From an uncultured Acidobacteriota bacterium (lineage in GTDB: Bacteria > Acidobacteriota > UBA6911 > CAINFC01), in NCBI GenBank assembly GCA_903847975.1, contig CAINFC010000294.1, forward strand, positions 811-64,810: a stretch of DNA of 64,000 nt. The letters are read 5' to 3'. A program made the position numbers and the translations under genes. How positions within the stretch are numbered: position 1 is the stretch's first letter; the number at the start of each line of letters is the position of its first letter. This document shows, piece by piece, positions 2,365 through 38,716 of the stretch. The notes below the pieces were generated by a model. The model saw nothing but the letters and a program-made list of their open reading frames with translations. It was not told the origin of the DNA and searched no databases.

Positions 2365-4128
2365 ATGAAGCCTTACGACCTGCTCCTGGTGCACGCGCAC
2401 CGCGATTCCTTCGCTGCCTTTTATGAAGACGTCTCCATCGGGACCAACCTTCTGGCGGGCACGCTTCGGGCCCGGGGATTCGAGGTCGGATATTTTCGAG
2501 GCTTTGCCGTGGAGGCCGCCGCCTGGATCCGAGCCGAATGGCGCGGTCGGGGCGCCCGGGCCATCGGGTTCTATTGCGATTACGAAAACGAAACCCTGAT
2601 TGCCGAGATGGGCCGGGGCCTTCGGGCGGTTTCGGACCTCCCCCTGATCGTCGGCGGGCCGCAGGCCTGCTTCCTGCAGGAGGATTTTTTCCGGCGTTCA
2701 GGGTGCTGGGCGGCGGTGCGGGGGGAAGCGGAGGATACGGTGGCCGAGCTGCTGGCGCTGCTGCGCAACGGAAGCGGCAGTCGGGAAGGCATTGCCGGAA
2801 TCAGTTTTCCGGGGCCGGATGGCCGGCTGATCCGGAATCCGGATCGGGAGCCGATTGCCGACCTGAACGCTCTTCCCTGGCCGGACTTTACCATGGAAAA
2901 GAATCATGCCCATTGGGTCAGCCTCCCGGTGCTCTCCGGCCGGGGCTGCCCCTTCCGCTGCGGATTTTGCTTTCAGGGAGCGGTTTCCACCCGGGTGCGC
3001 CTGCGCAGCGTCGCCGAGGTCATGCGCGAGATCCGCCACCACTTTGCGGTTCATGCCAACCTGCGATCCGTATATTTTGTGGACGACACCTTTACCCTCC
3101 ACCCCGGGCGGGTCGGGGAGTTTTGCGAAGAGCTGGCGCGGCTGCGCCAGGAGCGCGATTTCGTCTGGTTTTGCGAGGGGCACGTGCAGACCCTGCACCG
3201 CTGGCCGGAAATGGCAGAGCAGATGGCCGCCGCCGGACTGGTCAAAATCTTCATCGGAGTGGAATCCGGTTCGGATCGGGTGCTGCAGCTCTACCGCAAG
3301 CAGACCACGGCGGCCATGATCGAAGAAACGGTCGGGCAGTTGGTCCGGGCTGGCATCCCGCAGGTGGTCGGAAACATCATCCTCGGCGGGCCGCAGGAAA
3401 GTCCGGACACGGTTCGGGAAAGCAGGGAGCTGGTATTCCGCTTGCTGGACGCCCATCCCGGCCGGTTCGACTGCCTCGGATTTTTCCTGGTTCCTTTTCC
3501 CGGCACTGCGGTGGCCGAGCAGCCCGACGCGCTGGGGCTGCGCCTGCTGGATCACGGGCGCAAGGCGGTGGTGGACGACATTCCCTTCACCGAAACGGAA
3601 AGCCTGTCCTTTCCCGATCTGTTCCGAATCCGGCGGGAGTTCCATCGGCAGACGCTCACCCGAATGCGGGAGCTGTTTCTGGCCGGCCAAATCCCTCGTC
3701 CGGTCCTGGAGTCGATCTATCATCTTCATGGCCGCTACGGGATCGGCTCGCGCTGGATGCAGAATATTTTCCGGCTCTACCCGATGTCCCACCGCTACTA
3801 TTCGATGCTGGCCGGGAAAGCGATCCGCTCCCCGAAGGGGGTATCCTGCGTAAGGATTCGGCGCTGGCGCCCGCGCCGGCTCTTCGAGATCTGGAACGGA
3901 GTCCGTTTTACCAACGGCTACCCGGAGCTGGCCGGAATACCGCTTTCTCCGCTGGAATATGAACTGCTTCTGCCGTGTACCGGGAAGCTGACTCTGGACG
4001 AAATCCTGGAGAAGACCTTCCCGAAATTCCAGGAGCGTTTTCCGGACCGGGCCGCCTTCCGCCGCCTGGCGCGGCAGCTTCTTCTTAAAATGGAAGCCCG
4101 GTGCTGGATCGGCTTTCACGAGGCCTGA
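2365..4128 (+). CDS. B12-binding (class B) radical SAM enzyme, paralog 1, with C-terminal PqqD-like RRE motif
   Basis: CxxxCxxC cluster SGRGCPFRCGFCFQG. N-terminal Rossmann-type cobalamin-binding-like domain (LLLVHAHRD...GFYCDYENE...IVGGPQA). C-terminal LSPLEYELLLPCTGKLTLDEIL. ATG at 2365 was chosen by alignment with the paralog 2 N-terminus. The track ORF begins at GTG 2275. Confidence 0.85.
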   Translation: MKPYDLLLVHAHRDSFAAFYEDVSIGTNLLAGTLRARGFEVGYFRGFAVEAAAWIRAEWRGRGARAIGFYCDYENETLIAEMGRGLRAVSDLPLIVGGPQACFLQEDFFRRSGCWAAVRGEAEDTVAELLALLRNGSGSREGIAGISFPGPDGRLIRNPDREPIADLNALPWPDFTMEKNHAHWVSLPVLSGRGCPFRCGFCFQGAVSTRVRLRSVAEVMREIRHHFAVHANLRSVYFVDDTFTLHPGRVGEFCEELARLRQERDFVWFCEGHVQTLHRWPEMAEQMAAAGLVKIFIGVESGSDRVLQLYRKQTTAAMIEETVGQLVRAGIPQVVGNIILGGPQESPDTVRESRELVFRLLDAHPGRFDCLGFFLVPFPGTAVAEQPDALGLRLLDHGRKAVVDDIPFTETESLSFPDLFRIRREFHRQTLTRMRELFLAGQIPRPVLESIYHLHGRYGIGSRWMQNIFRLYPMSHRYYSMLAGKAIRSPKGVSCVRIRRWRPRRLFEIWNGVRFTNGYPELAGIPLSPLEYELLLPCTGKLTLDEILEKTFPKFQERFPDRAAFRRLARQLLLKMEARCWIGFHEA

Positions 4129-4129
4129 C

Positions 4130-5920
4130 ATGAATCCCACCGCAAACAGGAACACCCCCTCTCCGTACGACATTCTACTGATCCATGCCCATCGGGACTA
4201 CTATTTTGCCGCCGCGGACGGGATCGCCATTGGAACCCTGCTGCTGGCCTCGGTTTTACGGGATCGCGGACTGCGGGTTGGCTATTTCCGCGGCTTTGCC
4301 GGGGAAACCGCCGGGTGGCTGCGGGCCGAGCTGGAAGCGACCGGAGCGCGCTGCGTCGGCTTTTACTGTGACTACGAGAACGTGACCCTGGTGGAATCCC
4401 TGTCGCGGATGGTCAAATCCGGCGGGGAAATACCCGTGGTGGTGGGAGGCCCGCAGGCCTTTGCGCTGACCGAAGAGTTCTTCGAGCGGTCGCGCTGCGA
4501 TTTCGCCATCCGCGGGGAGGCGGAAAGGACCCTGCCGGAGCTTCTGGAGCACCTTCTGGAGGGAAAGGGCTGCCGGGAGGCCATCGACGGAATCAGCTAT
4601 CCGGACGGCGGCGGGCGGCTGGTCCGAAACCGGGACCGGGAGCTGATCGCGAATCTGGATGAGCTGCCCTTCGCGGACTTCCGCCTGGAACGGCGCTGGC
4701 CCTACCAGAAAAGCCTGCCGGTGCTCAGCGGGCGGGGGTGCCCCTACCGCTGCGCTTTCTGCTTCGAAGGCGGCAACACCCGGACCGTCCGATACCGCAG
4801 CGTGGGCCATGTGATGGCCGAAATCCGGGAGAATCTGAACCGCCGGCCCGACCTGCGCTCCGTCTTTTTTCTGGACGATACCTTCACTCTGAACCGGCAG
4901 CGGGTGGAAGAATTCTGCCGGGAACTTTCGCAGCTGCGCCGGCAGCACGATTTCGTATGGTTCTGCGAAGGGCACGTGCAGACCATCAACCGCCACCCCG
5001 ACCTGCTGCCGGTCATGGTGGCAGCCGGCCTGGTCAAAATGGCCATCGGCATCGAGTCGGGCTGCGACGAAACGCTCCGGCTGTACAACAAGCAATCCTC
5101 GGCCGCGGAAATCGAAGCCGCGGTGGGACGCCTGGTGCGGGCCGGCGTGCCGCAGGTCGAGGGGAATATCATCCTGGGCGGGCCGCAGGAAACAAAACAA
5201 ACCGCCCGGGCCAGCCTGAACCTGGTCCTGCGGCTGCTTCGGGCCCATCCCGGAAAATTTTTCAGCGGGGCCTATTTCCTGACTCCTTTTCCAGGAACAG
5301 CCATCACCTGCGCCCCGGAGCGGTTTGGCCTGAAATTTCTGCCCCCGAGAGTGAAAAGCGGGCTGGACGACATCCCGCAGGCTGAAACCGAAGCGTTGTC
5401 GATTGCCCGGCTTTTTGAAATCCGGCGATCCTTCGTCCGCCGCGTCCATTCCGCCATGAGCCGGATTCTGCACTCCGGGAAAGTGCCGCACGACTCGATG
5501 ACCTCCGCGTATCGGCTGGCGGCCCGCTACGGCATCGCTTCGCGCTGGCTGCAGAACCTGACCGGGCGGGTTCCGGTCACCGACCGCTATTTCTCTCTGC
5601 TGGCCCGCGGCGGGGCGGTTTCCTCCCGCGGCATCCGGCGGGGGCGGCTGATGAAAATGCACCCGATGCGCACGTTCGAGGTCTGGAATTCGATCCGGTT
5701 TTCGGAAGGCTATCCGGTGATCCAGGGTTTTGCCCTTTCTCCCCTGGAGTACGATCTGCTGTGCGCCAGCAGCGGAAAGCGGCCGCTCGGCGAGATCCTG
5801 CAATCCGCCTTCCGGAAATTCGGGAGCAGCAGCGGCGATTATTCCGAATTCGAAAAGCTTTCTATGGGACGTCTGAAGGCCTTCGAGAAAAAGCACTGGC
5901 TGGCCTATTCCGAATTCTGA
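4130..5920 (+). CDS. B12-binding (class B) radical SAM enzyme, paralog 2, with C-terminal RRE motif
   Basis: 596 aa. SGRGCPYRCAFCFEG. N-terminal ILLIHAHRD...GFYCDYENV...VVGGPQAF. C-terminal LSPLEYDLLCASSGKRPLGEIL. Starts 2 nt after the paralog 1 stop, suggesting operonic coupling. Confidence 0.9.
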   Translation: MNPTANRNTPSPYDILLIHAHRDYYFAAADGIAIGTLLLASVLRDRGLRVGYFRGFAGETAGWLRAELEATGARCVGFYCDYENVTLVESLSRMVKSGGEIPVVVGGPQAFALTEEFFERSRCDFAIRGEAERTLPELLEHLLEGKGCREAIDGISYPDGGGRLVRNRDRELIANLDELPFADFRLERRWPYQKSLPVLSGRGCPYRCAFCFEGGNTRTVRYRSVGHVMAEIRENLNRRPDLRSVFFLDDTFTLNRQRVEEFCRELSQLRRQHDFVWFCEGHVQTINRHPDLLPVMVAAGLVKMAIGIESGCDETLRLYNKQSSAAEIEAAVGRLVRAGVPQVEGNIILGGPQETKQTARASLNLVLRLLRAHPGKFFSGAYFLTPFPGTAITCAPERFGLKFLPPRVKSGLDDIPQAETEALSIARLFEIRRSFVRRVHSAMSRILHSGKVPHDSMTSAYRLAARYGIASRWLQNLTGRVPVTDRYFSLLARGGAVSSRGIRRGRLMKMHPMRTFEVWNSIRFSEGYPVIQGFALSPLEYDLLCASSGKRPLGEILQSAFRKFGSSSGDYSEFEKLSMGRLKAFEKKHWLAYSEF

Positions 5921-5925
5921 ACGCC

Positions 5926-7677
5926 ATGCCCCCGCCCGAGAAGCTCTATATCCTGCTGCTCTATATCCAGCGCCTGGCGCCGGGAAGAAATTTCGAGCAC
6001 CTGGACAGCCTGGGAATCATGACCCTGGCGGCCTTTCTGGAAGACAAGGGCTACAGGGCGCGCACCTACACCGGGATTACCACGGATGCGCTCCGCGTGG
6101 CGGAGGAGGAAATAGGGCGGGAAAACCTGGGGGCCATCGGGCTCACCTGCGATTACGACAATCAGAGCGCGGTTATCTCCTTTGCCCGGGCCATTAAGGG
6201 ACGACACAGGATTCCGATCATCGTTGGAGGTCCGCAGGCTTTTCACCTGCGCTCCGGATTCCTGCGGGAGGCCCGCTGCGATTTTCTGATCAAGGGGGAC
6301 GGGGAGCAGGCGCTTTTCGAGTTGCTGGAGTGCCTCGGCGAAGGTCGGGATCCATCCGCATCGATTGCCGGCCTGACCTGTTTCGATCGGGATGGGGTCG
6401 AGAGGGAAAATCCGCCGAGGCCCCCCGGGCGAAACCTGGATGGGCGGCCTTTTCCCCGAACCCGCTACCGGCTGCGGCCGGGGAAGCGACGGGCGCTCTC
6501 GGTCATTGGCAGCCGGGGCTGTCCCTACCGCTGCTCGTTTTGTTTCGAGGGCGGAAACACCAAGCGGTTCCGCCCGCGCAGCGTGGGCGACGTGATGGCC
6601 GAGATCCGTCTGGGCCTGGAGGAGAACCCGGAGGCCCGGTACCTGATGTTCCAGGACGATACCTTTACCCAGCAACCAGACCGCACTCTGGCCTTCGCCC
6701 GGGAGCTGGCCGCACTGCGCCGGACGCGCGACTTCGTCTGGTTTTGCGAGGCGCATCCCGGCTTCCTGGTGCGTCATCCCGAAGTGCTGCCGGAAATGAT
6801 CGGCGCCGGCTTGCAGCGCATGCAGATCGGGTTCGAATCGGGGTGCCGGGGCACCCTGGATCAGTATCGGAAGGGAATCAGCCCGGAGCAGCTTCGGGAG
6901 GCGGTGCGGCTGTGCTGGGATGCGGGGCTGCCTCAGCTGGCGGGCAATTTCATCATCGGCGGGCCGGGGGAAGAGGAGCGAACCCTCACGACCACCCGTG
7001 ATTTTATCCTGGAGATCCTGAACGGCTTCCCCGGAATGCTGGACCTGTCCACCACCTTTATTAATCCGCTTCCGAATACCGAAATTACCCGGCAGCCGGA
7101 AAAATTCGGGATGATAATTACGGATCCGGAGATGTGCACCTCGCTGGAAGACTACCCGGTGAACGAAACGCTATCGCTGGACCGCGTGGCCATATGCCGG
7201 GCGAGGCGAAACATGGTGGAGGCGATATCCGCGACCATGAAGCGGCAGTATGCGGAAGGACTCATTCCTGCAGGCCGCATGAAAAGGCACTTCGAACTGG
7301 CTCTGCGATACGGAGTATCGAGCAGCTGGTTCAATTATGTTTTTTCGCGGGATGAAGTCTGCATGAGCTACCACACCCTTCTGCTCTTCACTTCCGCCCG
7401 GGGCATCGATGAAGCCAGGCCGGAGGAACTGCAAAGTGCCTTTCCGCTGCGCGTCGCCGACCCGGAAGGGATCGGACCCGGCAGGGGATCGCGCCTCGGG
7501 GCGCTTCTCTCCGCAGACGACCGAAGGATTTTAGGCGCTTGCGATGGTAAAACCCGCCTGGACGCCCTGGCGGCGCTCTTTTCGGGCAGGAGCGGCGCCA
7601 GCGCAGTGCCGCCGGATCCCTTCCTGAGCCGAATCGACGATCTGTCAAGGCGTCGCTGGCTGGTTTTTTTTCACTGA
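5926..7677 (+). CDS. B12-binding (class B) radical SAM enzyme, paralog 3
   Basis: GSRGCPYRCSFCFEG. N-terminal B12-like domain (GLTCDYDNQ...IVGGPQAF). ATG 5926 lies 6 nt after the paralog 2 stop. The track ORF start 5761 overlaps paralog 2 and is unlikely. The C-terminal ILGACDGKTRLDALAALF is a degenerate RRE-like motif. Confidence 0.85.
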   Translation: MPPPEKLYILLLYIQRLAPGRNFEHLDSLGIMTLAAFLEDKGYRARTYTGITTDALRVAEEEIGRENLGAIGLTCDYDNQSAVISFARAIKGRHRIPIIVGGPQAFHLRSGFLREARCDFLIKGDGEQALFELLECLGEGRDPSASIAGLTCFDRDGVERENPPRPPGRNLDGRPFPRTRYRLRPGKRRALSVIGSRGCPYRCSFCFEGGNTKRFRPRSVGDVMAEIRLGLEENPEARYLMFQDDTFTQQPDRTLAFARELAALRRTRDFVWFCEAHPGFLVRHPEVLPEMIGAGLQRMQIGFESGCRGTLDQYRKGISPEQLREAVRLCWDAGLPQLAGNFIIGGPGEEERTLTTTRDFILEILNGFPGMLDLSTTFINPLPNTEITRQPEKFGMIITDPEMCTSLEDYPVNETLSLDRVAICRARRNMVEAISATMKRQYAEGLIPAGRMKRHFELALRYGVSSSWFNYVFSRDEVCMSYHTLLLFTSARGIDEARPEELQSAFPLRVADPEGIGPGRGSRLGALLSADDRRILGACDGKTRLDALAALFSGRSGASAVPPDPFLSRIDDLSRRRWLVFFH

Positions 7678-7720
7678 TTCGGGTTTTGCACCGGAAAGCC
7701 CGGGAACGGAAAAAAATTCT

Positions 7721-7999
7721 TTAGCTGGCAGTCTGAACGCCGACGAAGACGTAGTCCACGCCGACAATGGACAGCCCGCCGGCGACCTTGTCGAGCTCCT
7801 CGTCGCTCATGGCTTTCTTGGGACCGGCGGCCAGGCTTTCCTGGGCGGCCTGACGGAATTCCGGGATGGAAACCTCGAATCCCTGCCTTTGGGCGATGCT
7901 GAGGAAATCCTCTTCCGACTTGGCCTTTTTCAGCTGGTTCTGAAGGTCGATGTCCGACTGGAGCTTGGCGACCAGGGCTTTGGCACTTTCTGCTGACAT
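7721..7999 (-). CDS. RiPP precursor peptide with Nif11-type leader, Gly-Gly cleavage motif and 17-aa core
   Basis: 92 aa: MSAESAKALVAKLQSDIDLQNQLKKAKSEEDFLSIAQRQGFEVSIPEF...AMSDEELDKVAGG|LSIVGVDYVFVGVQTAS. The N-terminus matches the Nif11 domain pattern (L..kl..d..Lq..l..a.s.ee...iA...GF). It ends with the ELxxVAGG double-glycine motif. SD GGGAGG lies 8 nt before the ATG at 7999. Confidence 0.8.
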   Translation of the reverse strand: MSAESAKALVAKLQSDIDLQNQLKKAKSEEDFLSIAQRQGFEVSIPEFRQAAQESLAAGPKKAMSDEELDKVAGGLSIVGVDYVFVGVQTAS

Positions 8000-8050
8000 G
8001 TTAAAAACCTCCCACGAAAATTAACATTGAAAGAAAGGAAAGAGGTAAAC

Positions 8051-8079
8051 ATTATAGGGGAAAAGGCGGTTCTTTGCAA
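8051..8079 (-). promoter_or_regulatory. Near-consensus sigma70-like promoter for the precursor peptide gene (TTGCAA-N17-TATAAT)
   Basis: On the minus strand, -35 TTGCAA is at 8079-8074, followed by a 17-nt spacer and -10 TATAAT at 8056-8051. This places the promoter about 50 nt upstream of the precursor ATG at 7999. Confidence 0.45.
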
Positions 8080-8187
8080 CCGGTGGCCCGCTTTTTTTTG
8101 TTCTGCCAGGCGCAATCCGTCGGCTTTCGGGCTTTCGCGAGAACTCTCCTCATTGGGACGGCAGAACCGCACCCCGTCCACGACTTC

Positions 8188-8273
8188 TTTCGCTATCGCT
8201 ATCGCTATCGAAAAGATCCCTTCGCGGGGTATGGCGACGGGTTTTTTGTTTCGATCACGATAGCGATAGCGAA
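8188..8273. repeat. Large inverted repeat: 26-nt arms containing (CGCTAT)3 hexamer repeats, 34-nt spacer
   Basis: Left arm tttcgctatcgctatcgctatcgaaa (8188-8213). Right arm tttcgatcacgatagcgatagcgaaa (8248-8273). The arms are reverse complements with 2 mismatches. The repeat lies between the 3' end of rSAM paralog 4 and the precursor promoter. Confidence 0.7.
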
Positions 8274-8315
8274 ACAAGGAACCCCATTGAGGGTTCCGGA
8301 CTTTTTGCGGCGCCA

Positions 8316-10079
8316 TCAGTATTCGCTGAAGGTCACCAGGTATGCGGCATCGAATTTCCGCAATACCTCCATGGCTGCGCGCTCCAGGTCCTCCTGAGGA
8401 AAGCGCCCCTTCAGGTCGGCAACCATGTCATCCAATCGCTGCTTGCCGGAGCTTTGCAGGAGGATTTCCCATTCCAGGGGCGAAAAAGGTTTCCCGTCCA
8501 GGTGGGGAACCTCGCCAATAAAAACCAGGTTCTTGCGGAGTTCCGTGGTCCGCAGAGGGTGAAACGCGCCGATTTTACCGGGGGGAATGTCCGCGAGCCG
8601 GACCGCCTCCCCGCGGGAAACCAGGCGGTAGTATTCCTCCAGGGCGGGATTCTCCGCGTACACCAGCGCTTTCCAGAGACTGGTCAAACCGTAGGAATAG
8701 TGCAGCCGGTAGCTGCTCAGAATTCTCTCATGGGGCACGCGTCCGCCTTGCAGGGCTTCCGACATGACCGTCCGGATATGGGCGGCAAGCCGGAGCCGCC
8801 GGGTCAGCACTTCTTCCGCGGTCTGCCCTTCGGGGACCACCAGCGGAAAATCGTCGACCGAGCTGCTTCCCTCGGGATCGAGGATTCTCAGGCCGAACCG
8901 CTGCGGGTTGGAGGTCACTTCCGTACCGGGATAGGGCCGGAGGAATCCGGTGCTGATATCCAGTGCGCCCGGGGCCATCTCCAGCAGCTGCCGGGTGCGC
9001 TGCAGCAGATTTTCAAACCTTTCCGGAGTCTCCAGCGGGCCGCCGACAATCAGGTTCCCGGCCACCTGCGGTATCCCGGCCTGCATGGCCTGGCGGACCA
9101 CGAATTCGATTTCCTCCACGGTGCCTTTTTTATTGTAAAGGTCCAGGACGTCCTGGTCGAGGCTCTCGATGCCGATCTGCAGCCGCGCCAGCCCTGCTTC
9201 GGCCAGCTCGGCGAGCATACCCGGGCGGCGGGCCAGCGGCTGGACGTGTCCTTCGCAGAACCAGACGAAATCGTGCTCCCGGTGCAGCCGGGCGATTTCC
9301 CGGCAGAAGGCGGTTACCCGCGCCGGGTCGGCGGTGAAGGTATCATCGGAGACATACAGGTAGCGCAGCCGGGGATTGCGGATGAGATTTTCCCGGATTT
9401 CGCGGATCACCTGGCCGATGTCCCGGTTGCGGACCTTCCGGCCGTGAGGGTCCTTGTAGCAGAAGGCGCAGGAGAAGGGGCACCCTCTTCCCGTGGAAAC
9501 GGTTCTCCCATAGGACGCCCCGGGAGTCAGGGAAAGGTGGTAGGCGGGAAAGGGAAGGGCATCCAGATCCTGCGGCGGAACGGCGTCTGCATTGCGGATG
9601 ACCTTGCCTCCGGAAAGGTAGGAAATGCCGGGAATTTCCGCAAGCGCCGGTTTTCCCCGGATCAGAAAGCCAACCAGGGCGGGCAGGATTTCTTCCGCCT
9701 CTCCGCGCACCGCGAAGGAGCAGCCGCACGTCCGGAAGAACTCCTCTCCCAGGGCGATGGCCTGCGGGCCGCCCACAATGGTTTTCCGCCGGTACTTGCG
9801 ACGCACCAGGCGGCACAGCTCCTCAACCGCAGTCCGGTTTTCAAAATCGCAGGAAAATCCGACGGCAATCAGACGCAGTTCGGCACAGAGCTTTTCCAGG
9901 ACGGCCGGAAACTCATGAGCCGGGCCATGGAAAACGCGGGCCTGGTAGCCCTGCTTTTCCAGGACGGCGGCCAGCAGAAAAAGACCCAGGAAGTCCGACG
10001 GCGGAGAGGGCGGGCCGGGGGCGGCCCGCCGCGTGTCGGCCAGGAGGATCGCCGGTGTTCGCGGATCAGAGGGGTGCAT
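8316..10079 (-). CDS. B12-binding (class B) radical SAM enzyme, paralog 4, with C-terminal RRE motif
   Basis: TGRGCPFSCAFCYKD. N-terminal B12-like domain (GFSCDFENR...IVGGPQAI). C-terminal FSPLEWEILLQSSGKQRLDDMV. ATG 10079 was chosen. The track ORF starts at TTG 10103. The start overlaps the paralog 5 stop by about 14 nt. Confidence 0.85.
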   Translation of the reverse strand: MHPSDPRTPAILLADTRRAAPGPPSPPSDFLGLFLLAAVLEKQGYQARVFHGPAHEFPAVLEKLCAELRLIAVGFSCDFENRTAVEELCRLVRRKYRRKTIVGGPQAIALGEEFFRTCGCSFAVRGEAEEILPALVGFLIRGKPALAEIPGISYLSGGKVIRNADAVPPQDLDALPFPAYHLSLTPGASYGRTVSTGRGCPFSCAFCYKDPHGRKVRNRDIGQVIREIRENLIRNPRLRYLYVSDDTFTADPARVTAFCREIARLHREHDFVWFCEGHVQPLARRPGMLAELAEAGLARLQIGIESLDQDVLDLYNKKGTVEEIEFVVRQAMQAGIPQVAGNLIVGGPLETPERFENLLQRTRQLLEMAPGALDISTGFLRPYPGTEVTSNPQRFGLRILDPEGSSSVDDFPLVVPEGQTAEEVLTRRLRLAAHIRTVMSEALQGGRVPHERILSSYRLHYSYGLTSLWKALVYAENPALEEYYRLVSRGEAVRLADIPPGKIGAFHPLRTTELRKNLVFIGEVPHLDGKPFSPLEWEILLQSSGKQRLDDMVADLKGRFPQEDLERAAMEVLRKFDAAYLVTFSEY

Positions 10080-11829
10080 AGGCCAGCCAGTATTTTTCCT
10101 CAAAGAGTCTCATTTTTTTCATACAGGTTCTGTCGAATTCCCGGCGCCTGCGGTACAGGCCGGCAAATTTCGGGTAGACGGCGTCCAGGACCGCCTGCAG
10201 GGTCAGCTTCCCGGTGGAGTGCAGCAGCAGGTCGAATTCCAGCGGGGAGAGCACGTAACGGCCGATAGCCGGATAGCCTTCCGAAAAATCGACATCGTGC
10301 CAGAGCTCCAGAATACGCTGCGGTCGCCATCCCGGGAGCTCGCCGCGGGGGATTTCGCGGGAGCGCCGGACGGCTCTCCTGGCAATCAGCGAATAATAGG
10401 GACTAAGAAAGGGAACCCGGTCGTAAACGACCCTTCTCCAGATGAAACTCTGGCGCTCGACCCGTTCCCGGAAAGCGTAGGCGATACGCTCGTGGGGTAC
10501 CTTCCCTTCACGAAACAGCTTCCACATGACCTCCACCATGGAATCGACCAGGTATTTCTGCCCCTGGGCAATCGCCTCGCGGTCCAGCCCGGTGCTTTCC
10601 GTCAGCGGGAAATCGGAAATAGCCGTTCCTCCGGAGGGGTCGAGGACTTTCAGCCCGAATTTTTCCGGCGTCCGGGTAATTTCCGTGCCGGGATAGGGCA
10701 TGACCGGGCTTGGCGAAATTTCAATGATTCCGGGGGCGGTCCGTATCAGCTTTTCGACGAAGCGGCAGTTCTGTCCGGTGATTTTCCCGGACTCAAAGGG
10801 TGCGCCGGTGAGAATGCAGGCAAAGATCTGCCGGACTCCGGCCTTTACGGCATTCCGGACGACCCGCAGCACCATGGCCGGGGTGATCTTTTTCCGGCAG
10901 GCGTCGAGCACCTTCCGGGAAGCCGATTCGATGCCGATCTGCAGCCGGACCAGGCCGGACGGCACCATCAGGTCCAGCATTTCCGGCCAGCGGTCCAGCC
11001 TTTCGACGTGCGCCTCGCAGTACCAGCGGAAGTTTTTCCGGGTGCGAAGCCTGGCCAGCCCGGCGCAGATTTCTCTCACCCGCTCCAGGGAAAGAGTGAA
11101 GGTATCGTCGGTAAAGGCGATGTAATCGACGACAGGATATCGTCCCAGAACGGTTTCTATTTCCTGGAGGATGCTCGGGACGCTTCGGAACCTGGCTCTG
11201 TATTTGGCGGCTCCCTCCTGGCAGAAGGCGCAGCGGTACGGGCAGCCGCGCCCGGTCATGATGTTGTATCGGGGCTGCAGGATATAGTCCGGGCACAGGT
11301 GATAGGCGGGCAGCGGGATCAGGTCGAGATCTTCGACGATTTCCCCCGGGCCGGTGGAAATCAGGCTCCCGTCCTCCCCAAGGTAGAGGAGCCCGGGAAT
11401 CTTCCTCCAGTCCGGGTCCGGCGACGGCAGGCACTGCAGCAGGCGGAGCAGGGGCACTTCCCCTTCTCCGACCACGGCCGCCAGGCAGCCGGTTCGCTTC
11501 AGGAACCGGGCGTCAAATCCGACGGCCTGCGGTCCGCCGAGCAGGACCGGCACAGCGAACTGACCGGCGATCCATGGGCCAAGCTCCTGAACTTCCACCT
11601 GATTTTCGAAATCGCAGTATAAGCCGACCGCCAGCAGATGCGACCCCTCGGCTTTTTCACGGATCAGGGCCATGGCCCGGATCGGCTCGCAGCTGTAGAT
11701 TTCCGGAGCGTAGCCATGCGTTTCCAGCCAGGAGCCGAGGCTCAGCAGGCCGCCCGGGATTTCCCAGGCAATCTCCATGCTGGAGGGGATGATCCGATGA
11801 ACGTTGAGCAGCAGTACGGTCTTGGTCAA
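10066..11829 (-). CDS. B12-binding (class B) radical SAM enzyme, paralog 5, with C-terminal RRE motif
   Basis: TGRGCPYRCAFCQEG. N-terminal VLLLNVHRI...GLYCDFENQ...LLGGPQAV. C-terminal LSPLEFDLLLHSTGKLTLQAVL. TTG start 11829 is preceded by AGAGGA 7 nt upstream. Confidence 0.85.
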   Translation of the reverse strand: MTKTVLLLNVHRIIPSSMEIAWEIPGGLLSLGSWLETHGYAPEIYSCEPIRAMALIREKAEGSHLLAVGLYCDFENQVEVQELGPWIAGQFAVPVLLGGPQAVGFDARFLKRTGCLAAVVGEGEVPLLRLLQCLPSPDPDWRKIPGLLYLGEDGSLISTGPGEIVEDLDLIPLPAYHLCPDYILQPRYNIMTGRGCPYRCAFCQEGAAKYRARFRSVPSILQEIETVLGRYPVVDYIAFTDDTFTLSLERVREICAGLARLRTRKNFRWYCEAHVERLDRWPEMLDLMVPSGLVRLQIGIESASRKVLDACRKKITPAMVLRVVRNAVKAGVRQIFACILTGAPFESGKITGQNCRFVEKLIRTAPGIIEISPSPVMPYPGTEITRTPEKFGLKVLDPSGGTAISDFPLTESTGLDREAIAQGQKYLVDSMVEVMWKLFREGKVPHERIAYAFRERVERQSFIWRRVVYDRVPFLSPYYSLIARRAVRRSREIPRGELPGWRPQRILELWHDVDFSEGYPAIGRYVLSPLEFDLLLHSTGKLTLQAVLDAVYPKFAGLYRRRREFDRTCMKKMRLFEEKYWLAYAPL

Positions 11830-11856
11830 AACAGGTCCTCTATGCCCTCCGAAGGG

Positions 11857-13623
11857 TCAATATCGTGTGAAGATCAGAAATTGCCGGTTCTCCAGCTCCT
11901 GCAGGATGCGGATCATTTCGACCTCGCTCTGCGGCCATTGCTCCTTCCATCTCCCCGAGCCCTCGTGCCGCTCGAGCAGCTCCCCGATGGAGAACTTTCC
12001 GGTACAGTAAAGGATCACCTGGTACTCCGCGGGGGTGATCGGCATGCCGAGCAGCTCCGGCGGCTCTTTCCGGAAATCGACCGTATTTCCCAGGTAGGGA
12101 ATACGCACCGGCCGCCAGAGGCGGAGCTCCTCCCGCGGAATTTCGCACAGGCTGCGGGCCGAGCTGCTGCCGAGCAATGTGAATCTCCGGTCGAAGTTTA
12201 CGTGCTGGGAGTACACCAGGCTGTGCCAGGTGCTCGATATCCCGTATCGGCGGTAGAGCTCGTAGTGCCGGCGGATCCGCGCATGGGGAACGCCTCCCTG
12301 AAAGGTCAGGTCCCACATCAGCTGCCGGATTTGCCGGGAAAACCGCCGCCGGCCTCCGGCGATATGCTCCCGGCTGAGGCCGGTAGTGGCCGCCACAGGG
12401 TAATCTCCGGTGGAGGTCACCGAAGCGCTGTCGACCGGCCGGATTCCGAACCGTTCGGGGGATTGCGTCATGGTGGTTCCCGGGAAAGGGGTGTACAGTG
12501 TGTGGGTAATGTCAAGCATGCCGGGAGCCCGCCGGAGCAGGCGGGTCACGAATTCTTCGGTTTCGGCCAGGGTCTCCGGGGTTTCCATGGCCCCGCCGAA
12601 AATGATATTCCCGCACAGCTGGGGCAGGTCCTGTTTGACGCAGAGGTCCACGACCTGTTCGATCTGGGTCAGATCGGTACTCTTGCCGTACAATTGCACG
12701 ACCTTTGCGGAGCCGGTTTCGATGCCAATCTGCATCCGCACCAGCCCGGCCTCGATCATTTCCGGCAGCATGTCCGGCCATTTTACGATCAGGCTGGGGT
12801 GCGCATCGCAGAACCATACGAAATCGTGCCGGCCCCGCAGCTCCTTCATGGCCCCGCAGAACTCGGTGACCCTGCGGGGATTCAGGGTGAAGGTGTCGTC
12901 GGCAAACCATACGTAGCGGATGCCCGGGGAATCCCGAAAGCCCTGCTCGATTTCCTCCCGCACGCTCTGTACGCTGCGCAGCCGCACGTTGCGGGTGTTT
13001 CCTCCTTCGAAGCAGAAGGCGCAGCGGAAAGGGCATCCCCGGCCGGTAAGCACCGCCAGGTTGGTTTTTTTGCCGGTCAGAGAAAATTCGGCCCGGGGAA
13101 CCGGCAGGGCATCCAGGTCTTCGATGGCCGGCCGGTCCGGAGTTCGGATCAGCTGCCCGGTGGCATCCAGAAAGGTAATGCCGGCGATTTCCTGCAGCGA
13201 TCCTTTGCCCTTCACAAAAAAATCCAGCAGCTCCGGAAGAGTCTGCTCTCCCTCTCCGCGCCCTACCGCATCGCAGAGAGAAGACCGGAGAAACCCGGCT
13301 TCCAGAAAATACCCCTGCGGCCCGCCGGCAAAGACGGGTACGGAGTACTTTCCTTTGGCGGTGCGGGCAAAGGATTCGACCACATTCTGGTTTTCATAGT
13401 CGCAGTAAAGGGCGATGGCCTGGACCCCTTCTTTCCGGTACATATTTTCGAGAAGGGGCAGGGCGTCGGTAATCGATCCGGTGAAAACCCGCGGGCAGTA
13501 GCCATGCCGGTCCAGGGCCGCCGCCAGGGTCATCAGCCCGATCGGCTCTACGTAGCGGTAGAACTGCTTGAAAGAGGCTCTCTGCAGGAAAAGCAATAAA
13601 ACTTTGGCAATACCCCTGGTCAT
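11857..13623 (-). CDS. B12-binding (class B) radical SAM enzyme, paralog 6, with C-terminal RRE-like motif
   Basis: TGRGCPFRCAFCFEG. N-terminal B12-like domain (ALYCDYENQ...FAGGPQGY). C-terminal ITPAEYQVILYCTGKFSIGELL. ATG 13623 (MTRGIAK...) has AAGGAAA immediately upstream. The track ORF extends to 13800, but that extension lacks homology to the paralog N-termini. An alternative ATG is at 13647. Confidence 0.85.
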   Translation of the reverse strand: MTRGIAKVLLLFLQRASFKQFYRYVEPIGLMTLAAALDRHGYCPRVFTGSITDALPLLENMYRKEGVQAIALYCDYENQNVVESFARTAKGKYSVPVFAGGPQGYFLEAGFLRSSLCDAVGRGEGEQTLPELLDFFVKGKGSLQEIAGITFLDATGQLIRTPDRPAIEDLDALPVPRAEFSLTGKKTNLAVLTGRGCPFRCAFCFEGGNTRNVRLRSVQSVREEIEQGFRDSPGIRYVWFADDTFTLNPRRVTEFCGAMKELRGRHDFVWFCDAHPSLIVKWPDMLPEMIEAGLVRMQIGIETGSAKVVQLYGKSTDLTQIEQVVDLCVKQDLPQLCGNIIFGGAMETPETLAETEEFVTRLLRRAPGMLDITHTLYTPFPGTTMTQSPERFGIRPVDSASVTSTGDYPVAATTGLSREHIAGGRRRFSRQIRQLMWDLTFQGGVPHARIRRHYELYRRYGISSTWHSLVYSQHVNFDRRFTLLGSSSARSLCEIPREELRLWRPVRIPYLGNTVDFRKEPPELLGMPITPAEYQVILYCTGKFSIGELLERHEGSGRWKEQWPQSEVEMIRILQELENRQFLIFTRY

Positions 13624-13645
13624 TTTCCTTGTTACCGGGATACCC

Positions 13646-13651
13646 ATTATA
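13646..13651 (-). promoter_or_regulatory. Candidate -10 box (TATAAT) upstream of rSAM paralog 6
   Basis: Minus strand reads ...cgtccagTATAATgggtatcccggtaacaAGGAAAATG. A perfect TATAAT lies 23-28 nt upstream of ATG 13623, within an AT-rich 100-bp gap after the hybrid HK gene. No good -35 was seen. Confidence 0.3.
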
Positions 13652-13726: not shown

Positions 13727-15931
13727 TCAGGGCTGGTTCTTCTGCACCGTCCGCCGGTCGAGCAGCTGACGGATTTTTTGCAGAAGCACCTCGCGCTCAT
13801 AGGGCTTCTGGATCAGGTGCAGCTGTTCGTGGATCACGAAATCGGTATGGATGCCGCTCTGGCTGTAGCCGCTGGTAAACAGGATGGGGACCTCCGAGCC
13901 GGTGGCCCGGATCTGGTCCATGACCTCTTTCCCTCCCAGGTTAGGCATCATGACATCCAGCACCACCAGGTCGATCCGGTTCCGGTTCCGCTCGTAGATC
14001 TGGAGGGCTTCCAGGCCATCCGCAGCGGTCAGGACGGTGTAGCCGGCTTTGCGGAGAAAGGCCGCCTGGATGTGCAGAAGGGCGGTATCGTCCTCTGAAA
14101 TCAGGATGGTCTCTTTCCCGCCGGTCAGGGCCGGTTGGGAAGGGTTCGGCGATTTTTCGTTGGCGACCTCGACGATGGGCAGGTAAACCTGGAACACGCT
14201 GCCCTCTCCCGGCTTGCTGGAGGCGTGGATCAGGCCGTGATGCTGCTTGACGATTCCATACACGCTCGACAGGCCGAGTCCTGTCCCTTTTCCCAGGCCC
14301 TTGGTGGTAAAGAAGGGCTCAAAGACCTGGGCCAGCGTCGAGGCATCCATGCCGGCCCCGGTGTCCGCTACGCTCAAAAGAGCGTAGGCTCCCTCTTTGG
14401 CCCAGGCATTCAGGCTGCAAAACGACCGATCCAGAATTTCGGGACGGATTTCGATGGTGATCCGGCCGCCTTTGGGCATGGCATCCCGGGCGTTGATGCA
14501 GAGGTTGAGGAGAACCTGCTCCATCTGTCCCTTGTCGGCAAAAACATTGCCGGTCTTATGTCCGCTGACAACGCAGAGCTGGATGTTCTCTTCGATCAGC
14601 CGCCGGAGCATTTTCAGGACGCCCTGCACCAGGTCGTTCAGGTCCAGGTATACCGGGTGGATCACCTGGCGCCGGCTGAAGGCCAGGAGCTGACGGGTCA
14701 GGTCGGCAGCCCGCCGCCCGGCCGAGCTGATTTCCTCACATTCGCTCCAGGCCAGGGTGCCGGGCATAAGTTCCGACTGAAGGCTGTCGGCATTCATCAG
14801 GATCACCTGCAGCAGATTGTTGAAGTCGTGGGCCACTCCTCCGGCCAGATGTCCCACTGCTTCCATTTTCTGGGACTGGCGCAGCTGCTCCTCCAGGGTC
14901 TTCTGCTCCTCCTCCCTCTGCTTCCGTTCGGTGATGTCCTGGACAATACCGACGGATCGGACCGGTTCTCCCTGGGTATCGAATTCATTCCGGCCGATCG
15001 CCTTGACCCACTTGATCCGGCCGTCCTTCATGCGCAGCCGGTATTCGATTTCGAGAGGACGGTATTGGGAAACGGACAAGGTATAGGCTCGATGGACCAT
15101 ATCGCGGTCTTCCGGATGAATGCTTTCCAGGAAAGCTTCGTAGGTCGCTTCGAACCGCTTCGGGTCGATTTCGAAGAGCTCGAAAATTTCCGGCGGCCAT
15201 TGCATGCGGTTATCCTTCCGATCGAGGCTCCACATGCTCATTTTGGCAATCCGCTGCGCTTCCCGGAGATTGGCTTCGCTCTCCCGCAGCGACCGCTCCG
15301 CGTGCCGGCGGGCCTTCAGCTCCGCCTCCAGATCCTCCTTGGTCTTCACCAGGTCGGCGGTCCGCTCGCGTACCCGGACTTCCAGCCCGGCCTGCGCCCG
15401 GCGGAGCTCCTCCTCCTGTCTTTTTGCGGCGCTCATATCGGTAAGGATCAGGCAGACGGCCGTAATCTTATCTTCCATTTCCAGGGAAATGGCGGAAAGA
15501 AGCACCGGGACGGTCCCCTCCGGATCGACGGCCAGATTGAGCTCCAGGGCCTTTCCCGTGGCCAGATCCTCCCGGATCAGACGGTCAAAGGCCGGCCGGT
15601 CGGGGAGGGAAATCAGCGGGAGGAAGGAATTTCCGATGATCTGTTCCATCGGCTTGCGCAGCAAGGCCGCCAGGCTCCGGTTGCAGTACATGGTGCCGCC
15701 GTCCCGGGTCAGGATGGCCGCCCCCTCGTTCATGTTTTCCACCAGCAGGCGGTAGGTGCGCTCCGCATGCTGCAAGGTGAAGACGCGCTGACCCCCGGGG
15801 CCCGAAACGATCAGGGCGTCCACTTCGCCGCAGCGGATGGCATGCAGCGTATGCTCGGCCTCCTCCAGTCGGGCGCGAAGTTCCCGGATTTCCCGGTGAA
15901 GGCCTTGACTCGAAGATGGATTCCTGGTCAT
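13727..15931 (-). CDS. Hybrid sensor histidine kinase (PAS domains, HisKA, HATPase_c, C-terminal receiver)
   Basis: 734 aa. H-box HLAGGVAHDFNNLLQVI. ATPase G-boxes (DTGAGMD, GLGKGTGLGLS). C-terminal REC ILISEDDTALL...LVVLDVMMP. Coiled-coil and PAS segments are N-terminal. The start overlaps the kaiB stop by 4 nt (ATGA). Confidence 0.85.
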   Translation of the reverse strand: MTRNPSSSQGLHREIRELRARLEEAEHTLHAIRCGEVDALIVSGPGGQRVFTLQHAERTYRLLVENMNEGAAILTRDGGTMYCNRSLAALLRKPMEQIIGNSFLPLISLPDRPAFDRLIREDLATGKALELNLAVDPEGTVPVLLSAISLEMEDKITAVCLILTDMSAAKRQEEELRRAQAGLEVRVRERTADLVKTKEDLEAELKARRHAERSLRESEANLREAQRIAKMSMWSLDRKDNRMQWPPEIFELFEIDPKRFEATYEAFLESIHPEDRDMVHRAYTLSVSQYRPLEIEYRLRMKDGRIKWVKAIGRNEFDTQGEPVRSVGIVQDITERKQREEEQKTLEEQLRQSQKMEAVGHLAGGVAHDFNNLLQVILMNADSLQSELMPGTLAWSECEEISSAGRRAADLTRQLLAFSRRQVIHPVYLDLNDLVQGVLKMLRRLIEENIQLCVVSGHKTGNVFADKGQMEQVLLNLCINARDAMPKGGRITIEIRPEILDRSFCSLNAWAKEGAYALLSVADTGAGMDASTLAQVFEPFFTTKGLGKGTGLGLSSVYGIVKQHHGLIHASSKPGEGSVFQVYLPIVEVANEKSPNPSQPALTGGKETILISEDDTALLHIQAAFLRKAGYTVLTAADGLEALQIYERNRNRIDLVVLDVMMPNLGGKEVMDQIRATGSEVPILFTSGYSQSGIHTDFVIHEQLHLIQKPYEREVLLQKIRQLLDRRTVQKNQP

Positions 15932-16257
15932 TTTTTTCGCAAGTCAAGCCCGATGAGAACCTTGTCGGTGTCCGAAAGGTCCCCGATGATGCGCCGCAAG
16001 GGCAGCGGCAGTTTTTTAATGAGCGTCGGGGCAGCAATGATCTGCTCCCCCTCCGCCAGGGTCGGCTGCTGATAGATATCCACCACTTCCAGGGTGTAGC
16101 GGCCGTGCAGGTGCTCCTCGCAGATCTTGCGGATGTTGGCGATGGCCCGCACGGAACGGGGAGTAAGGCCGGTTACGAAGAGGCGTAAAACGTAATTGGA
16201 CGACTGGGTCCGGGTCAGCGCCTTTTCAAACGAAGCCGTCGCCGATCTGGTTTTCAT
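15928..16257 (-). CDS. kaiB: Circadian clock protein KaiB (copy 1)
   Basis: 109 aa. YVLRLFVTGLTPRSVRAI...LEVVDIYQQPTLAEGEQIIAAPTLIKKLPLPLRRIIGDLSDTDKVLIGLDL. Near-collinear match to cyanobacterial KaiB, including the RRIIGDLSD block. Confidence 0.85.
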   Translation of the reverse strand: MKTRSATASFEKALTRTQSSNYVLRLFVTGLTPRSVRAIANIRKICEEHLHGRYTLEVVDIYQQPTLAEGEQIIAAPTLIKKLPLPLRRIIGDLSDTDKVLIGLDLRKK

Positions 16258-16261
16258 GAGG

Positions 16262-16615
16262 TCAGTCTTCTCCCTTCGGCTTCAGGTCCAGCCCGACCAG
16301 CACGCGCTCCGTGTTGGACAGATTCCCGATGATCCTGCGCACCGGCGGGGGAAGCTTGCGGATCAGGGTAGGCAGGGCCACGATCTGATGGTCCTGGGCC
16401 AGTTGGGGGTTTTCGAGGAGGTCGATGATTTCGATCCGGTACTGCCAGCCAGCCAGGTTTTCCTCACAGATCCGGCGGAGGTTGGAAAAAGCCTCGAGGG
16501 ATTTGGGCGTCTGTCCGGCGACATAGAGCTGCAGGATCCAGACCTTGCTTCCGTCCCGCAATGGGCCTTTTGACCGGGATGTTTTCCGGGCGGCATCGGC
16601 CGCGATGTCCTTCAT
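16262..16615 (-). CDS. kaiB: Circadian clock protein KaiB (copy 2)
   Basis: 117 aa. [18 protein letters not shown]...[51 protein letters not shown]. Its stop is 4 nt from the start of kaiB copy 1. Confidence 0.85.
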
Positions 16616-29358: not shown

Positions 29359-29396
29359 AACGAGATTCCTTATATGGGACAAGCCGGCAAAAAGTA

Positions 29397-29463
29397 AACG
29401 CGGCATCGCACCGCGTTCTTCGCGTTTCCGCAAACCCAACAACCACGCGGTTGGAAGCCGCGT
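29397..29463. promoter_or_regulatory. Two tandem palindromes ACGCGG-N7-CCGCGT upstream of the sulfur operon
   Basis: AACGCGGcatcgcaCCGCGTT at 29397-29417 and ACGCGGttggaagCCGCGT at 29445-29463. Both lie 40-105 nt upstream of the persulfide dioxygenase start at 29358. Confidence 0.4.
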
Positions 29464-29761
29464 CTATGTTCAAAAGACCGACTTTTTGCGTACTTGTGAT
29501 AATTGCCAACTCATTCATGCAAAGTGGATAGCGACTGAAGTATGGGTTTTGGAATCACCAGGTAAGCTTCCTGTGCCATCCATGCAAAAACAAAATGGTG
29601 AATAAAAGATGTGCTTTCTTTCCACTAATACCCTACTTGATAGTCGCTATTTTTGTCAAGAGAAAAAATTGGGGTGCAGGCCTGAGAAATTATGCTAATA
29701 CTTGAAAATAGGAGAGGCGCGTGATAACCTAGTAGTATATACATACTAGGATAGGGGTTAC

Positions 29762-30130
29762 ATGTCTCTCTCTTCAAAAGCCTTGCTCTGGCAAAAGATA
29801 ATTGCTTTAGATCCGATCTGTTCCGGTTCCCTTCATGAGCAGTATTTGCCTTGTGGAAAATCAAATTGTCAATGCAAAAATTCCCAACATCCCCAACGGC
29901 ACGGTCCTTACTACCTTTGGGTTCGTCGTCTGAACGGCAAGCAAGTGAATCGAACTCTAAAACCCGGTCCGGAACTGGAAAAGGTACGAAAAGGCATTGC
30001 CAACTACCAGTTGTTACAGTCCTATTTGGGTCAGGTGTTGCTGGAAGATGAAAACCGAGTCTTGGAGCCGGATCGTGCTTGGATGGGGGCTACTAAAAAA
30101 AACTTCAGATGGAAATTGCCGAAGTCTTAG
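29762..30130 (+). CDS. IS orfA: zinc-finger-like N-terminal transposase fragment
   Basis: 122 aa. Cys cluster CSGSLHEQYLPCGKSNCQCKN. Basic and HTH-like remainder. Its end overlaps orfB. Confidence 0.4.
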   Translation: MSLSSKALLWQKIIALDPICSGSLHEQYLPCGKSNCQCKNSQHPQRHGPYYLWVRRLNGKQVNRTLKPGPELEKVRKGIANYQLLQSYLGQVLLEDENRVLEPDRAWMGATKKNFRWKLPKS

Positions 30131-30585
30131 AACAACATTTGCAGGAATTTGAATTACCGGAAGCCGAGCAGTTGCAAGAGGTCGATGCGGGAGCCGAAGA
30201 AGAGCTGTTTCGTCGGATGGGCCAGCAGGTGGTGTGCCAAAAACTGGGCCAACGGTGGCAAGCAGCCGATCAGACCAAGGAGGCCCATTGTTCCCAATGT
30301 AAACAGAAGATGAAAGCCCTGGGTAGGCGGCCGAAAAGAATTCATTCCCTCTGTGGTCCAATCAATTATGCCCGCCTTACCGATCAATGGGCTTTGGAAC
30401 ATCATTTGCCGGTGGGTTCCGGAAATGTGGAATCGGCGGAACGGCACATTGTCCAATTACGATTCAAACAATCCGGCATGCGGTGGTCGGACCAAGGCGC
30501 CCGGGATATTCTCCATTTGCGTACTCTACATCGCAGTGGGCACTTTGAACAGTATTGGGAGGATTATGCCGCGAGCGGCTTCTGA
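30109..30585 (+). CDS. IS orfB: transposase C-terminal fragment (ISKra4/UPF0236-like tail)
   Basis: 158 aa in the -1 frame relative to orfA. Zinc ribbon CSQCKQKMK...SLCGPI. C-terminal SGNVESAERHIVQLRFKQSGMRWSDQGARDILHLRTLHRSGHFEQYW resembles, from memory, the conserved transposase tail of that family. No DDE core is present, so the middle is deleted. Confidence 0.4.
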   Translation: MEIAEVLEQHLQEFELPEAEQLQEVDAGAEEELFRRMGQQVVCQKLGQRWQAADQTKEAHCSQCKQKMKALGRRPKRIHSLCGPINYARLTDQWALEHHLPVGSGNVESAERHIVQLRFKQSGMRWSDQGARDILHLRTLHRSGHFEQYWEDYAASGF

Positions 30586-38501: not shown

Positions 38502-38716
38502 TATTCGCTGGTATGGGGTCCTATACTTGCAAAGCGGCAAAAAACCGAATTCGAATTTTCTTGCTTCTCCATCGGGGTTACGCCTTTTCGGACCGGCGGA
38601 TGGCCGGCCTCAGCCCCTAAGGCGGAAACCGCGGAGGAATAGGGGCACCCTACACGTTTTATTTACCTTTGCTGAAAAATAGAAAGGCCGATTCAATTCT
38701 CAACGGAGGAGAAAGA

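Follow-up and report, generated by a model that had tools for sequence, protein, structure and literature searches.

We analyzed a 64-kb stretch of contig CAINFC010000294.1 from an uncultured Acidobacteriota bacterium (hereafter the window; coordinates are window positions), which carries a putative biosynthetic locus for a peptide that is made by the ribosome and modified after translation (RiPP). The listing and translation of open reading frames (ORFs) show six intact paralogous genes for radical S-adenosylmethionine (SAM) enzymes, named R1 to R6, in two convergent operons, three on the plus strand and three on the minus strand, around the gene for a precursor peptide with a Nif11-type leader (Table 1). 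An initial annotation of this DNA had described six radical SAM paralogs and a Nif11-leader gene, and the ORF listing and Pfam placed all of them where that annotation had put them; its enzyme length of 580 to 650 amino acids had to be revised, as the correct start codons give 583 to 596 residues (about 590). R6 can start at the ATG at 13623 (588 amino acids) or at the ATG at 13647 (596 amino acids). The same genes are called on identical metagenome contigs, with lengths of 583 to 596 residues, including 587 for R1 and 596 for R6. Because an equal set of enzymes with a precursor occurs on independent contigs and in other phyla, the locus is not a chance assembly.

Table 1. Positions of the genes and sequence elements of the R1 to R6 locus and its upstream neighbors in the 64-kb window.
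Feature	Position	Strand	Description
R1	2365-4128	+	B12-binding/radical SAM, C-terminal RRE-like domain, 587 amino acids; orthogroup A; recent duplicate of R2
R2	4130-5920	+	B12-binding/radical SAM, C-terminal RRE-like domain, 596 amino acids; orthogroup A
R3	5926-7677	+	B12-binding/radical SAM, C-terminal RRE-like domain, 583 amino acids; orthogroup R3; final gene of the plus-strand operon
Precursor	7721-7999	-	92 amino acids; Nif11-type leader (Pfam Nif11, TIGR03798), VAGG motif, core LSIVGVDYVFVGVQTAS
R4	8316-10079	-	B12-binding/radical SAM, C-terminal RRE-like domain, 587 amino acids; orthogroup R4; immediately upstream of the precursor
R5	10066-11829	-	Radical SAM, degenerate B12-type N-terminal domain, C-terminal RRE-like domain, 587 amino acids; orthogroup R5
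R6	11857-13647	-	B12-binding/radical SAM, C-terminal RRE-like domain; orthogroup R6; opens the minus-strand operon
Promoter-like site	8051-8079	-	TTGCAA-17-TATAAT, consensus scan, 10/12 matches; just upstream of the precursor gene
Inverted repeat	8184-8213 and 8249-8278		30 nt, 90% complementary, 35-nt spacer, GCTATC/GATAGC hexamer runs
Hairpin with T-run	8278-8297		Beside the inverted repeat
Histidine kinase	13727-15931	-	Hybrid PAS histidine kinase/response regulator; directly upstream of R6
Two kaiB genes	15928-16257 and 16262-16615	-	Upstream of R6
kaiC	16745-18481	-	Upstream of R6

All six enzymes matched the Pfam model Radical_SAM (PF04055), as had been expected, with E values of 1e-19 to 1e-23, and all retain the CxxxCxxC motif and an invariant GGPQ. 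The three cluster cysteines are invariant in the alignment of the paralogs and in a 108-sequence alignment of homologs. Pairwise identity among the six paralogs is 31 to 52%, and R1 and R2 share 52%. An N-terminal B12-binding domain, which the initial annotation had assigned to every enzyme, was confirmed in five of the six, which exceed the gathering cut-off of PF02310 (34.7-44.1 bits versus 32.1; in R1, 1.1e-10 for B12-binding and 1.9e-23 for Radical_SAM), but not in R5 (Radical_SAM, 8.1e-23; GGPQ retained). No SPASM auxiliary-cluster domain was detected in the six enzymes by Pfam. The nearest solved structures by sequence, all remote, are AprD4, CysS, OxsB, and TokK. An AlphaFold2 model of R2, made with the 108 homologs as input (pLDDT 94, pTM 0.91), was compared with the PDB using Foldseek and best matched MgmA, TsrM, AprD4, OxsB, CysS, and TokK at 15 to 19% identity; the class B neighbors MgmA, TsrM, OxsB, CysS, and TokK gave E values of 1e-17 to 1e-21. 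Among NCBIfam models, ApyD (NF050148) was the top match for four of the six paralogs and the second for one more (E values, 1e-26 to 1e-36), and HpnJ, BchE, and a ladderane lipid enzyme were among the better partial matches, at about 100 bits versus cut-offs of 480 to 580. For the six enzymes, these sequence matches and the R2 model support both the architecture and the fold of class B (cobalamin-type) radical SAM proteins.

The C-terminal domain of R2, the only one modeled, is predicted to be a winged helix of three strands and three helices, as in PqqD, NisB, LynD, and the lasso B1 proteins, which suggests a RiPP recognition element (RRE). The fold comparison scored it at 8.0 with MibB, 7.9 with TigE, 7.7 with both TfuB1 and TbiB1, 7.5 with NisB, 7.3 with PbtF, 7.0 with MccB, 6.7 with PqqD, 6.5 with TglI, and 6.4 with LynD. 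A search with the PqqD model (PF05402), which the initial annotation had suggested, matched none of the six C-terminal domains in Pfam at E values up to 10, and yet the predicted fold is that of an RRE. All six C-terminal domains can be aligned, so each enzyme most likely bears its own leader-binding module. Out of 1.84 billion proteins, a profile of this domain retrieved only 59 clusters formed at 50% identity, and nearly all of these have the length of this enzyme or are its fusions or fragments; the domain is thus the hallmark of a small and specific family of enzymes.

The precursor matched TIGR03798 over the whole profile (positions 1-68 of 68; 61.4 bits, cut-off 32.3) and the Nif11 model PF07862 (50.4 bits, cut-off 23.8; E value, 2.7e-13), in agreement with the 92-residue Nif11-type leader peptide with a GG site that had been read from the DNA at the outset. 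Its C-terminal end reads DKVAGG, with a double-glycine-type motif, followed by the hydrophobic 17-residue core LSIVGVDYVFVGVQTAS; the leaders of homologs finish in GG, AG, or VG, the putative cleavage motif. The cores of Nif11-type RiPPs are normally hypervariable. The 48 full-length precursors collected from further genomes and from metagenomes have 29 distinct cores, and these follow the almost invariant consensus L-S-x-V-G-[VI]-D-Y-[AV]-F-x-x-x-[QEK]-T, with V4, G5, D7, Y8, F10, and T15 invariant across all 48. Compared pair by pair, the cores have a mean identity of 0.82 and the leaders one of 0.54, a contrast inflated by the fact that a core pattern retrieved most of the sequences; strong core conservation is also seen in four loci found through the enzymes and in a leader-based protein search. 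Across loci, extra enzyme copies showed no consistent relation to core variants (FVGV versus FTAT). The core VGVDYVFVGVQT (window 7730-7790) also resembles the radical SAM strand motif GLxxIxIGxES, a likeness that is probably coincidental.

A homolog search with R2 returned full-length relatives, often several on one contig, and one homolog is annotated in one source as an anaerobic Mg-protoporphyrin cyclase. The four loci mentioned above were reached through the enzyme alone, independently of the core pattern, and each has a Nif11 precursor. Heliomicrobium undosum (L005) has six enzymes and a precursor with GVG followed by LTFVGIDYAFVGVKTSSG, and a metagenome-assembled genome (MAG; L006) has seven enzymes and GG followed by LSLVGVDYAFVGVQTAKK. 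There are six enzymes each in the closest relative (L050, in which R2 is 66% identical), with GG followed by LSIVGVDYAFVATQTSK, and in a Clostridia MAG (L052), with AVG followed by LTIVGVDYAFVAVQTSST. A degenerate DNA pattern of the core was then scanned against one genome per species for 185,579 species, giving 41 loci, 40 of which are Nif11 precursors with a matching core, flanked by such enzymes; the lone chance match of the pattern, VGMDYVFIGVET, lies within a Micromonospora radical SAM gene (L044, 7465-7502). The carriers, at least 40 genomes and for the most part anaerobes, include many Acetobacterium species, Candidatus Formimonas warabiya, Eubacteriaceae, Anoxynatronum, Thermoclostridium, Sporomusa malonica, Synergistaceae/Aminobacteriaceae, Wallbacteria, Vulcanimicrobiota, and Desulfobacterales. 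The co-occurrence of enzymes and precursor, which the initial annotation had proposed to examine, thus recurs in other genomes.

A neighbor-joining tree of 117 enzyme domains, together with BLAST of the enzyme ORFs of these loci against the six window paralogs, resolved five clades with one window paralog in each, except that clade A alone has two (R1 and R2). The gene order R6-R5-R4-precursor-A(-A')-R3 is conserved, and the window splits this order into its two convergent operons. Orthologs of R3 (40-46% identity) come after the clade-A gene in other loci as well, and in almost every locus the gene directly upstream of the precursor is an R4 ortholog. In Acetobacterium and its relatives, R6 (N-terminal half) and R5 (C-terminal half) are fused into a protein of approximately 1200 amino acids in which the radical SAM and B12 domains each occur twice (L010, L020, L022, L025, L028, L034, L037, L039, and L049), which suggests that the two enzymes act together. 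Some loci encode extra R6-like enzymes of 632 to 882 amino acids (L006, 7297-9927; L005, 8043-9941; and P0139), and in P0139 (882 amino acids) the profile of the C-terminal RRE-like domain matched twice. Judged from the sequences, the paralogs split before the cluster spread between phyla and have stayed together since, and this ancient divergence with joint retention speaks for a separate task of each paralog on the core. The six paralogs with iterative activity pictured by the initial annotation therefore hold as to the number of genes, but they consist of five ancient, syntenic orthogroups plus the recent duplicate pair R1/R2, which makes dedicated site-specific enzymes likelier than one iterative activity.

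A Synergistaceae MAG (L026) encodes another radical SAM protein just upstream of the precursor (4799-6343; 515 amino acids), which has Radical_SAM and Fer4_12 domains without a B12 domain, and its gene order differs in that the precursor comes first. In Sporomusa malonica (CP155572), there are two related clusters, and past each of them lie a pair of HlyD genes and a C39 peptidase-containing ATP-binding transporter (PCAT): L035 is of the VGVDY/Nif11 type, and L007 consists of two enzymes and two tandem precursors with the cores WDSHDTTNVASTVASTVATVGVVVACA and WGPSETSITVSVVTTTVTVACA. The precursors of this two-enzyme cluster appear from the sequence to be of the nitrile hydratase leader peptide (NHLP) type, and its enzymes branch outside the five clades.

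A Nif11 leader with a GG motif is a standard signal for export and leader cleavage. PCAT, C39, or HlyD genes adjoin the enzymes in L035, L041, L050, and L052. The closest relative, L050, has two ATP-binding cassette (ABC) transporters directly upstream of R6, one of which bears a C39 domain; in L035, the two HlyD proteins and the PCAT are found immediately past R3; and the Clostridia MAG has stand-alone C39-like peptidases beside the enzymes. An HlyD protein follows R3 in Acetobacterium, for which a 2019 genome paper reported an antiSMASH "bacteriocin" locus with radical SAM, B12-radical SAM, HlyD, and Nif11 genes (PMC6925170). The lack of a PCAT or C39 protease noted in the initial annotation is consequently true of the window but not of the class, because L050, L035, and L052 have C39 or PCAT genes. 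As related loci have a transporter beside the enzymes, the one of this genome would have to lie beyond the window. The only candidates for an exporter or a leader protease in the window, an ABC-2 system (43.5-46.8 kb) and an M13 peptidase (61.8-64 kb), were rejected as remote from the cluster and of the wrong type.

We consider it probable that the locus is the biosynthetic cluster of a conserved, uncharacterized RiPP family, in which leader-guided, site-specific modification, probably C-methylation, is followed by cleavage and export. The RiPP assignment made initially has held up, as the Nif11 precursor lies amid class B enzymes in a layout that recurs in other phyla. Each enzyme would dock on the leader through its RRE-like domain and use the 5'-deoxyadenosyl radical at one or a few fixed core positions, where unactivated sp3 carbons, e.g., the Cβ of Val, Ile, Tyr, Phe, Asp, and Thr, would be methylated through cobalamin. 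The product would be a densely C-methylated and very hydrophobic peptide; after the leader is cut behind GG (or VG/AG), it would be exported by a C39-peptidase ABC transporter. By analogy, C-methylation of unactivated carbons is the most likely main reaction, at somewhat better than even chances. It is favored because the best-scoring characterized relative, the RRE-fused B12-radical SAM enzyme ApyD, methylates Cβ of Tyr (PMC11002830), and because every characterized group in a B12-radical SAM similarity network includes C-methylases (PMC12931638). It is also favored because cores rich in Val, Ile, Thr, and Phe are the usual substrates, as in bottromycin, polytheonamide, and clavusporin, where Val/Ile/Pro/Thr-rich cores receive multiple β-methylations (bioRxiv 10.1101/2024.01.23.576971), and because the cluster conserves no other enzyme type.

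Several results weigh against this interpretation. The PF02310 B12-binding model matched neither R5 nor its orthologs in Pfam, and none of the six enzymes reached the curated cut-off of any named NCBIfam family. The scores for the ApyD equivalog were 57 to 124 bits versus 750, over profile positions of approximately 26 to 391 of 645, and those for the PoyB/PoyC-type RiPP C-methyltransferase (TIGR03975) were 37 to 84 bits versus a cut-off of 281.85 for all six. AprD4, which neither binds nor uses cobalamin (PMC12931638), is among the closest sequence and fold matches, on a par with the class B enzymes. Class B reactions other than methylation exist, such as the C-C cross-link of PbsB and the reactions of OxsB, BchE, and ThnL. 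Among the larger ORFs of the window, Pfam detected neither a C39 peptidase nor a PCAT or HlyD protein, and the proposed chemistry itself is deduced from sequence and analogy. An analogy to the cyclopropylglycine synthase TvgB, considered as a B12 enzyme acting on V-G motifs, was dropped because the literature shows it to be an RS-SPASM enzyme.

The same RiPP cluster might rely on another chemistry, in which the five enzyme types, partly or altogether, do not methylate but form cross-links (C-C, C-O, or C-N), for example at the invariant Tyr8, Phe10, or Asp7, or epimerize, desaturate, or rearrange residues; the product would be a constrained polycyclic peptide. We regard this as the main alternative, though a distinctly less likely one. 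The B12-type enzyme PbsB cross-links aromatic side chains with no obvious role for cobalamin (PMC12257519), and sequence does not separate methylating from non-methylating B12-radical SAM members, which allows other chemistry (PMC12931638); moreover, five long-diverged orthogroups on one conserved core of 15 residues leave room for several reaction types, and the invariance of D7, Y8, and F10 alongside aliphatic residues fits cross-linking. However, methylation is by far the commonest class B activity as well as that of ApyD, a Val/Ile/Thr-rich core offers the usual targets of β-methylation, and the SPASM domain, typical of cross-linking radical SAM enzymes, was not detected. A further reading, which we put forward only tentatively, is that the five enzyme types each install a different modification, some of them other than methyl groups, and jointly remodel nearly every residue of the 15-residue core into a scaffold of an undescribed kind; the product would then be ancient, horizontally shared among corrinoid-rich anaerobes, and directed to one conserved target or role.

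Two other explanations change the fate of the peptide or dispense with it. That the modified peptide stays in the cell as the precursor of a cofactor or signal, in the manner of pyrroloquinoline quinone or mycofactocin, would account for the near-invariant core, with its contrast to the leader across phyla and its invariant Val-Asp-Tyr stretch, and for the lack of a transporter or protease in the window and in the portions read of the Heliomicrobium and L006 loci. We consider it unlikely because of the exporters in related loci: C39 exporters, C39 peptidases, or HlyD proteins adjoin the enzymes in Sporomusa, L050, the Clostridia MAG, and Acetobacterium. The export and cleavage signal of the leader also speaks against an intracellular role, and the core-conservation figure that favors it is inflated by core-pattern retrieval. 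The other explanation, which is very improbable, is that no RiPP is made at all: as for HpnJ or BchE, the substrate of the enzymes would be a small molecule such as a lipid or tetrapyrrole, and the Nif11-like ORF would be a neighbor without relation to them. The partial matches to HpnJ, BchE, and the ladderane enzyme and the homolog annotated as Mg-protoporphyrin cyclase point that way, but those scores are far under the cut-offs and reflect shared domains only. In addition, the precursor gene lies within the enzyme array in every locus examined (first in L026), the enzymes bear RRE-like C-terminal domains (that of R2 modeled, and the six aligning), and the profile of this domain is nearly confined to this architecture.

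Site-specific modification of one core by paralogous enzymes has a precedent. In bottromycin biosynthesis, the paralogous class B methylases BotRMT1-3 take Phe, Val, and Pro, one residue each, of one short core. By description, they are the nearest precedent for one paralog per site, and they are listed among the B12-radical SAM methylases (PMC12931638); the bottromycin system differs in having three enzymes, a follower peptide instead of a Nif11 leader, YcaO and other enzymes, and an actinobacterial origin. ApyD resembles the present enzymes in being an RRE-fused class B radical SAM enzyme that acts on a leader-bearing peptide, but it is the single enzyme of this kind in the apy pathway, which also has a multinuclear non-heme iron oxidase (MNIO), a P450, and a methyltransferase and whose precursor is not of the Nif11 type. 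The proteusins (polytheonamide and aeronamide; PoyB/PoyC) share a long leader of the nitrile-hydratase/Nif11 superfamily, class B enzymes, a core rich in Val, Ile, Thr, and Gln, and unactivated carbons that are densely modified, and by its Nif11 subtype the present leader belongs to the NHLP or Nif11-like long leaders that define proteusins. They differ in that two iterative enzymes of the PoyB/C family act on a core of approximately 48 residues, compared with five dedicated orthogroups on 17 residues here. No PoyD-type epimerase or other radical SAM type, dehydratase, or N-methyltransferase was found in the cluster, in scans that also covered the other ORFs of the window and, in part, its small ORFs. 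The initial annotation was accordingly right that the gene complement is unlike that of described proteusin clusters, in view of the TIGR03975 scores (37-84 bits versus 282) and the lack of an epimerase and a dehydratase.

Clavusporins, made by the B12-radical SAM enzyme MpcB and the DUF5825 protein MpcC, are surface-active peptides with a short hydrophobic Val/Ile/Thr/Pro core and seven to eight methyls on a 13-mer (bioRxiv 10.1101/2024.01.23.576971), and they are a plausible model for the type of product by analogy. They come from an actinomycete with one iterative enzyme with a CX7CX2C motif, a DUF5825 partner, and an S9 protease, whereas the present clusters have five or six CX3CX2C enzymes with fused RRE-like domains and occur in anaerobes. 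PbsB of biphenomycin-type biosynthesis likewise belongs to the B12-type radical SAM enzymes and targets a conserved aromatic motif in its RiPP precursor (PMC12257519); it forms a biaryl C-C bond between ortho-tyrosines pre-made by an MNIO, and no MNIO is present here. In the literature searched, which covered few subscription-journal papers, so that a recent description is possible, the antiSMASH locus of PMC6925170 was the only mention of this family and no characterization was found. No curated family covers the enzymes either. Within that literature, the undescribed RiPP class suggested initially is best seen as a new RiPP family. The parts are all of known kinds (Nif11 leader, class B radical SAM enzyme, RRE, and PCAT), and the combination is new: as read from sequences and the R2 model, five dedicated orthogroups of RRE-fused B12-type enzymes are predicted to serve one short, near-invariant core in dozens of anaerobes of several phyla.

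The promoter-like site upstream of the precursor gene is followed by a candidate ribosome-binding site (GGGAGG, consensus match). The inverted repeat and the hairpin sit between the end of R4 and this promoter-like site and may be a terminator, attenuator, or operator; the arrangement fits a separate, strong expression of the precursor. An Rfam scan of the whole window found no cobalamin riboswitch or other RNA. The histidine kinase and the kaiB-kaiB-kaiC genes take the place that the PCAT exporter pair has in L050. Homologs matched by KaiC are scattered among Planctomycetota, Verrucomicrobiota, Chloroflexota, and archaea. In L050 (1-8142), an additional B12-radical SAM gene lies ahead of R1, as does a set of sugar-nucleotide genes for a GHMP kinase, epimerases, transketolase halves, a DegT aminotransferase, and a nucleotidyltransferase; none of these occurs in the window. 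Divergent from R1 on the minus strand are genes for a Gfo/Idh/MocA oxidoreductase with a twin-arginine translocation (Tat) signal (837-2123) and a class I SAM methyltransferase (3-809, cut by the window start); they are probably unrelated, because neither adjoins the cluster in other taxa. Farther away, the G+C content falls from approximately 0.61 to 0.53-0.55 across approximately 14 kb (28000-42000), which may be acquired DNA; this stretch encodes a 2531-residue FG-GAP/BACON/DUF11 surface-type protein (30906-38501) and a Ser/Thr kinase with PD40 repeats (38669-41578).

If our interpretation is correct, this would be, to our knowledge, the largest dedicated set of class B radical SAM enzymes for a single short peptide, with 15 to 18 residues served by five orthogroups, which in some loci comprise six or seven genes. 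It would provide a natural panel of related enzymes with differing site specificity, and possibly differing reaction type, on one substrate, which would be useful for peptide engineering and for learning what governs the regioselectivity of cobalamin radical SAM enzymes. Culturable carriers, such as Acetobacterium species, S. malonica, and H. undosum, make the family directly testable and a good experimental lead. The invariance of the core across phyla, unusual for Nif11-type RiPPs, hints at a conserved function in anaerobic communities.

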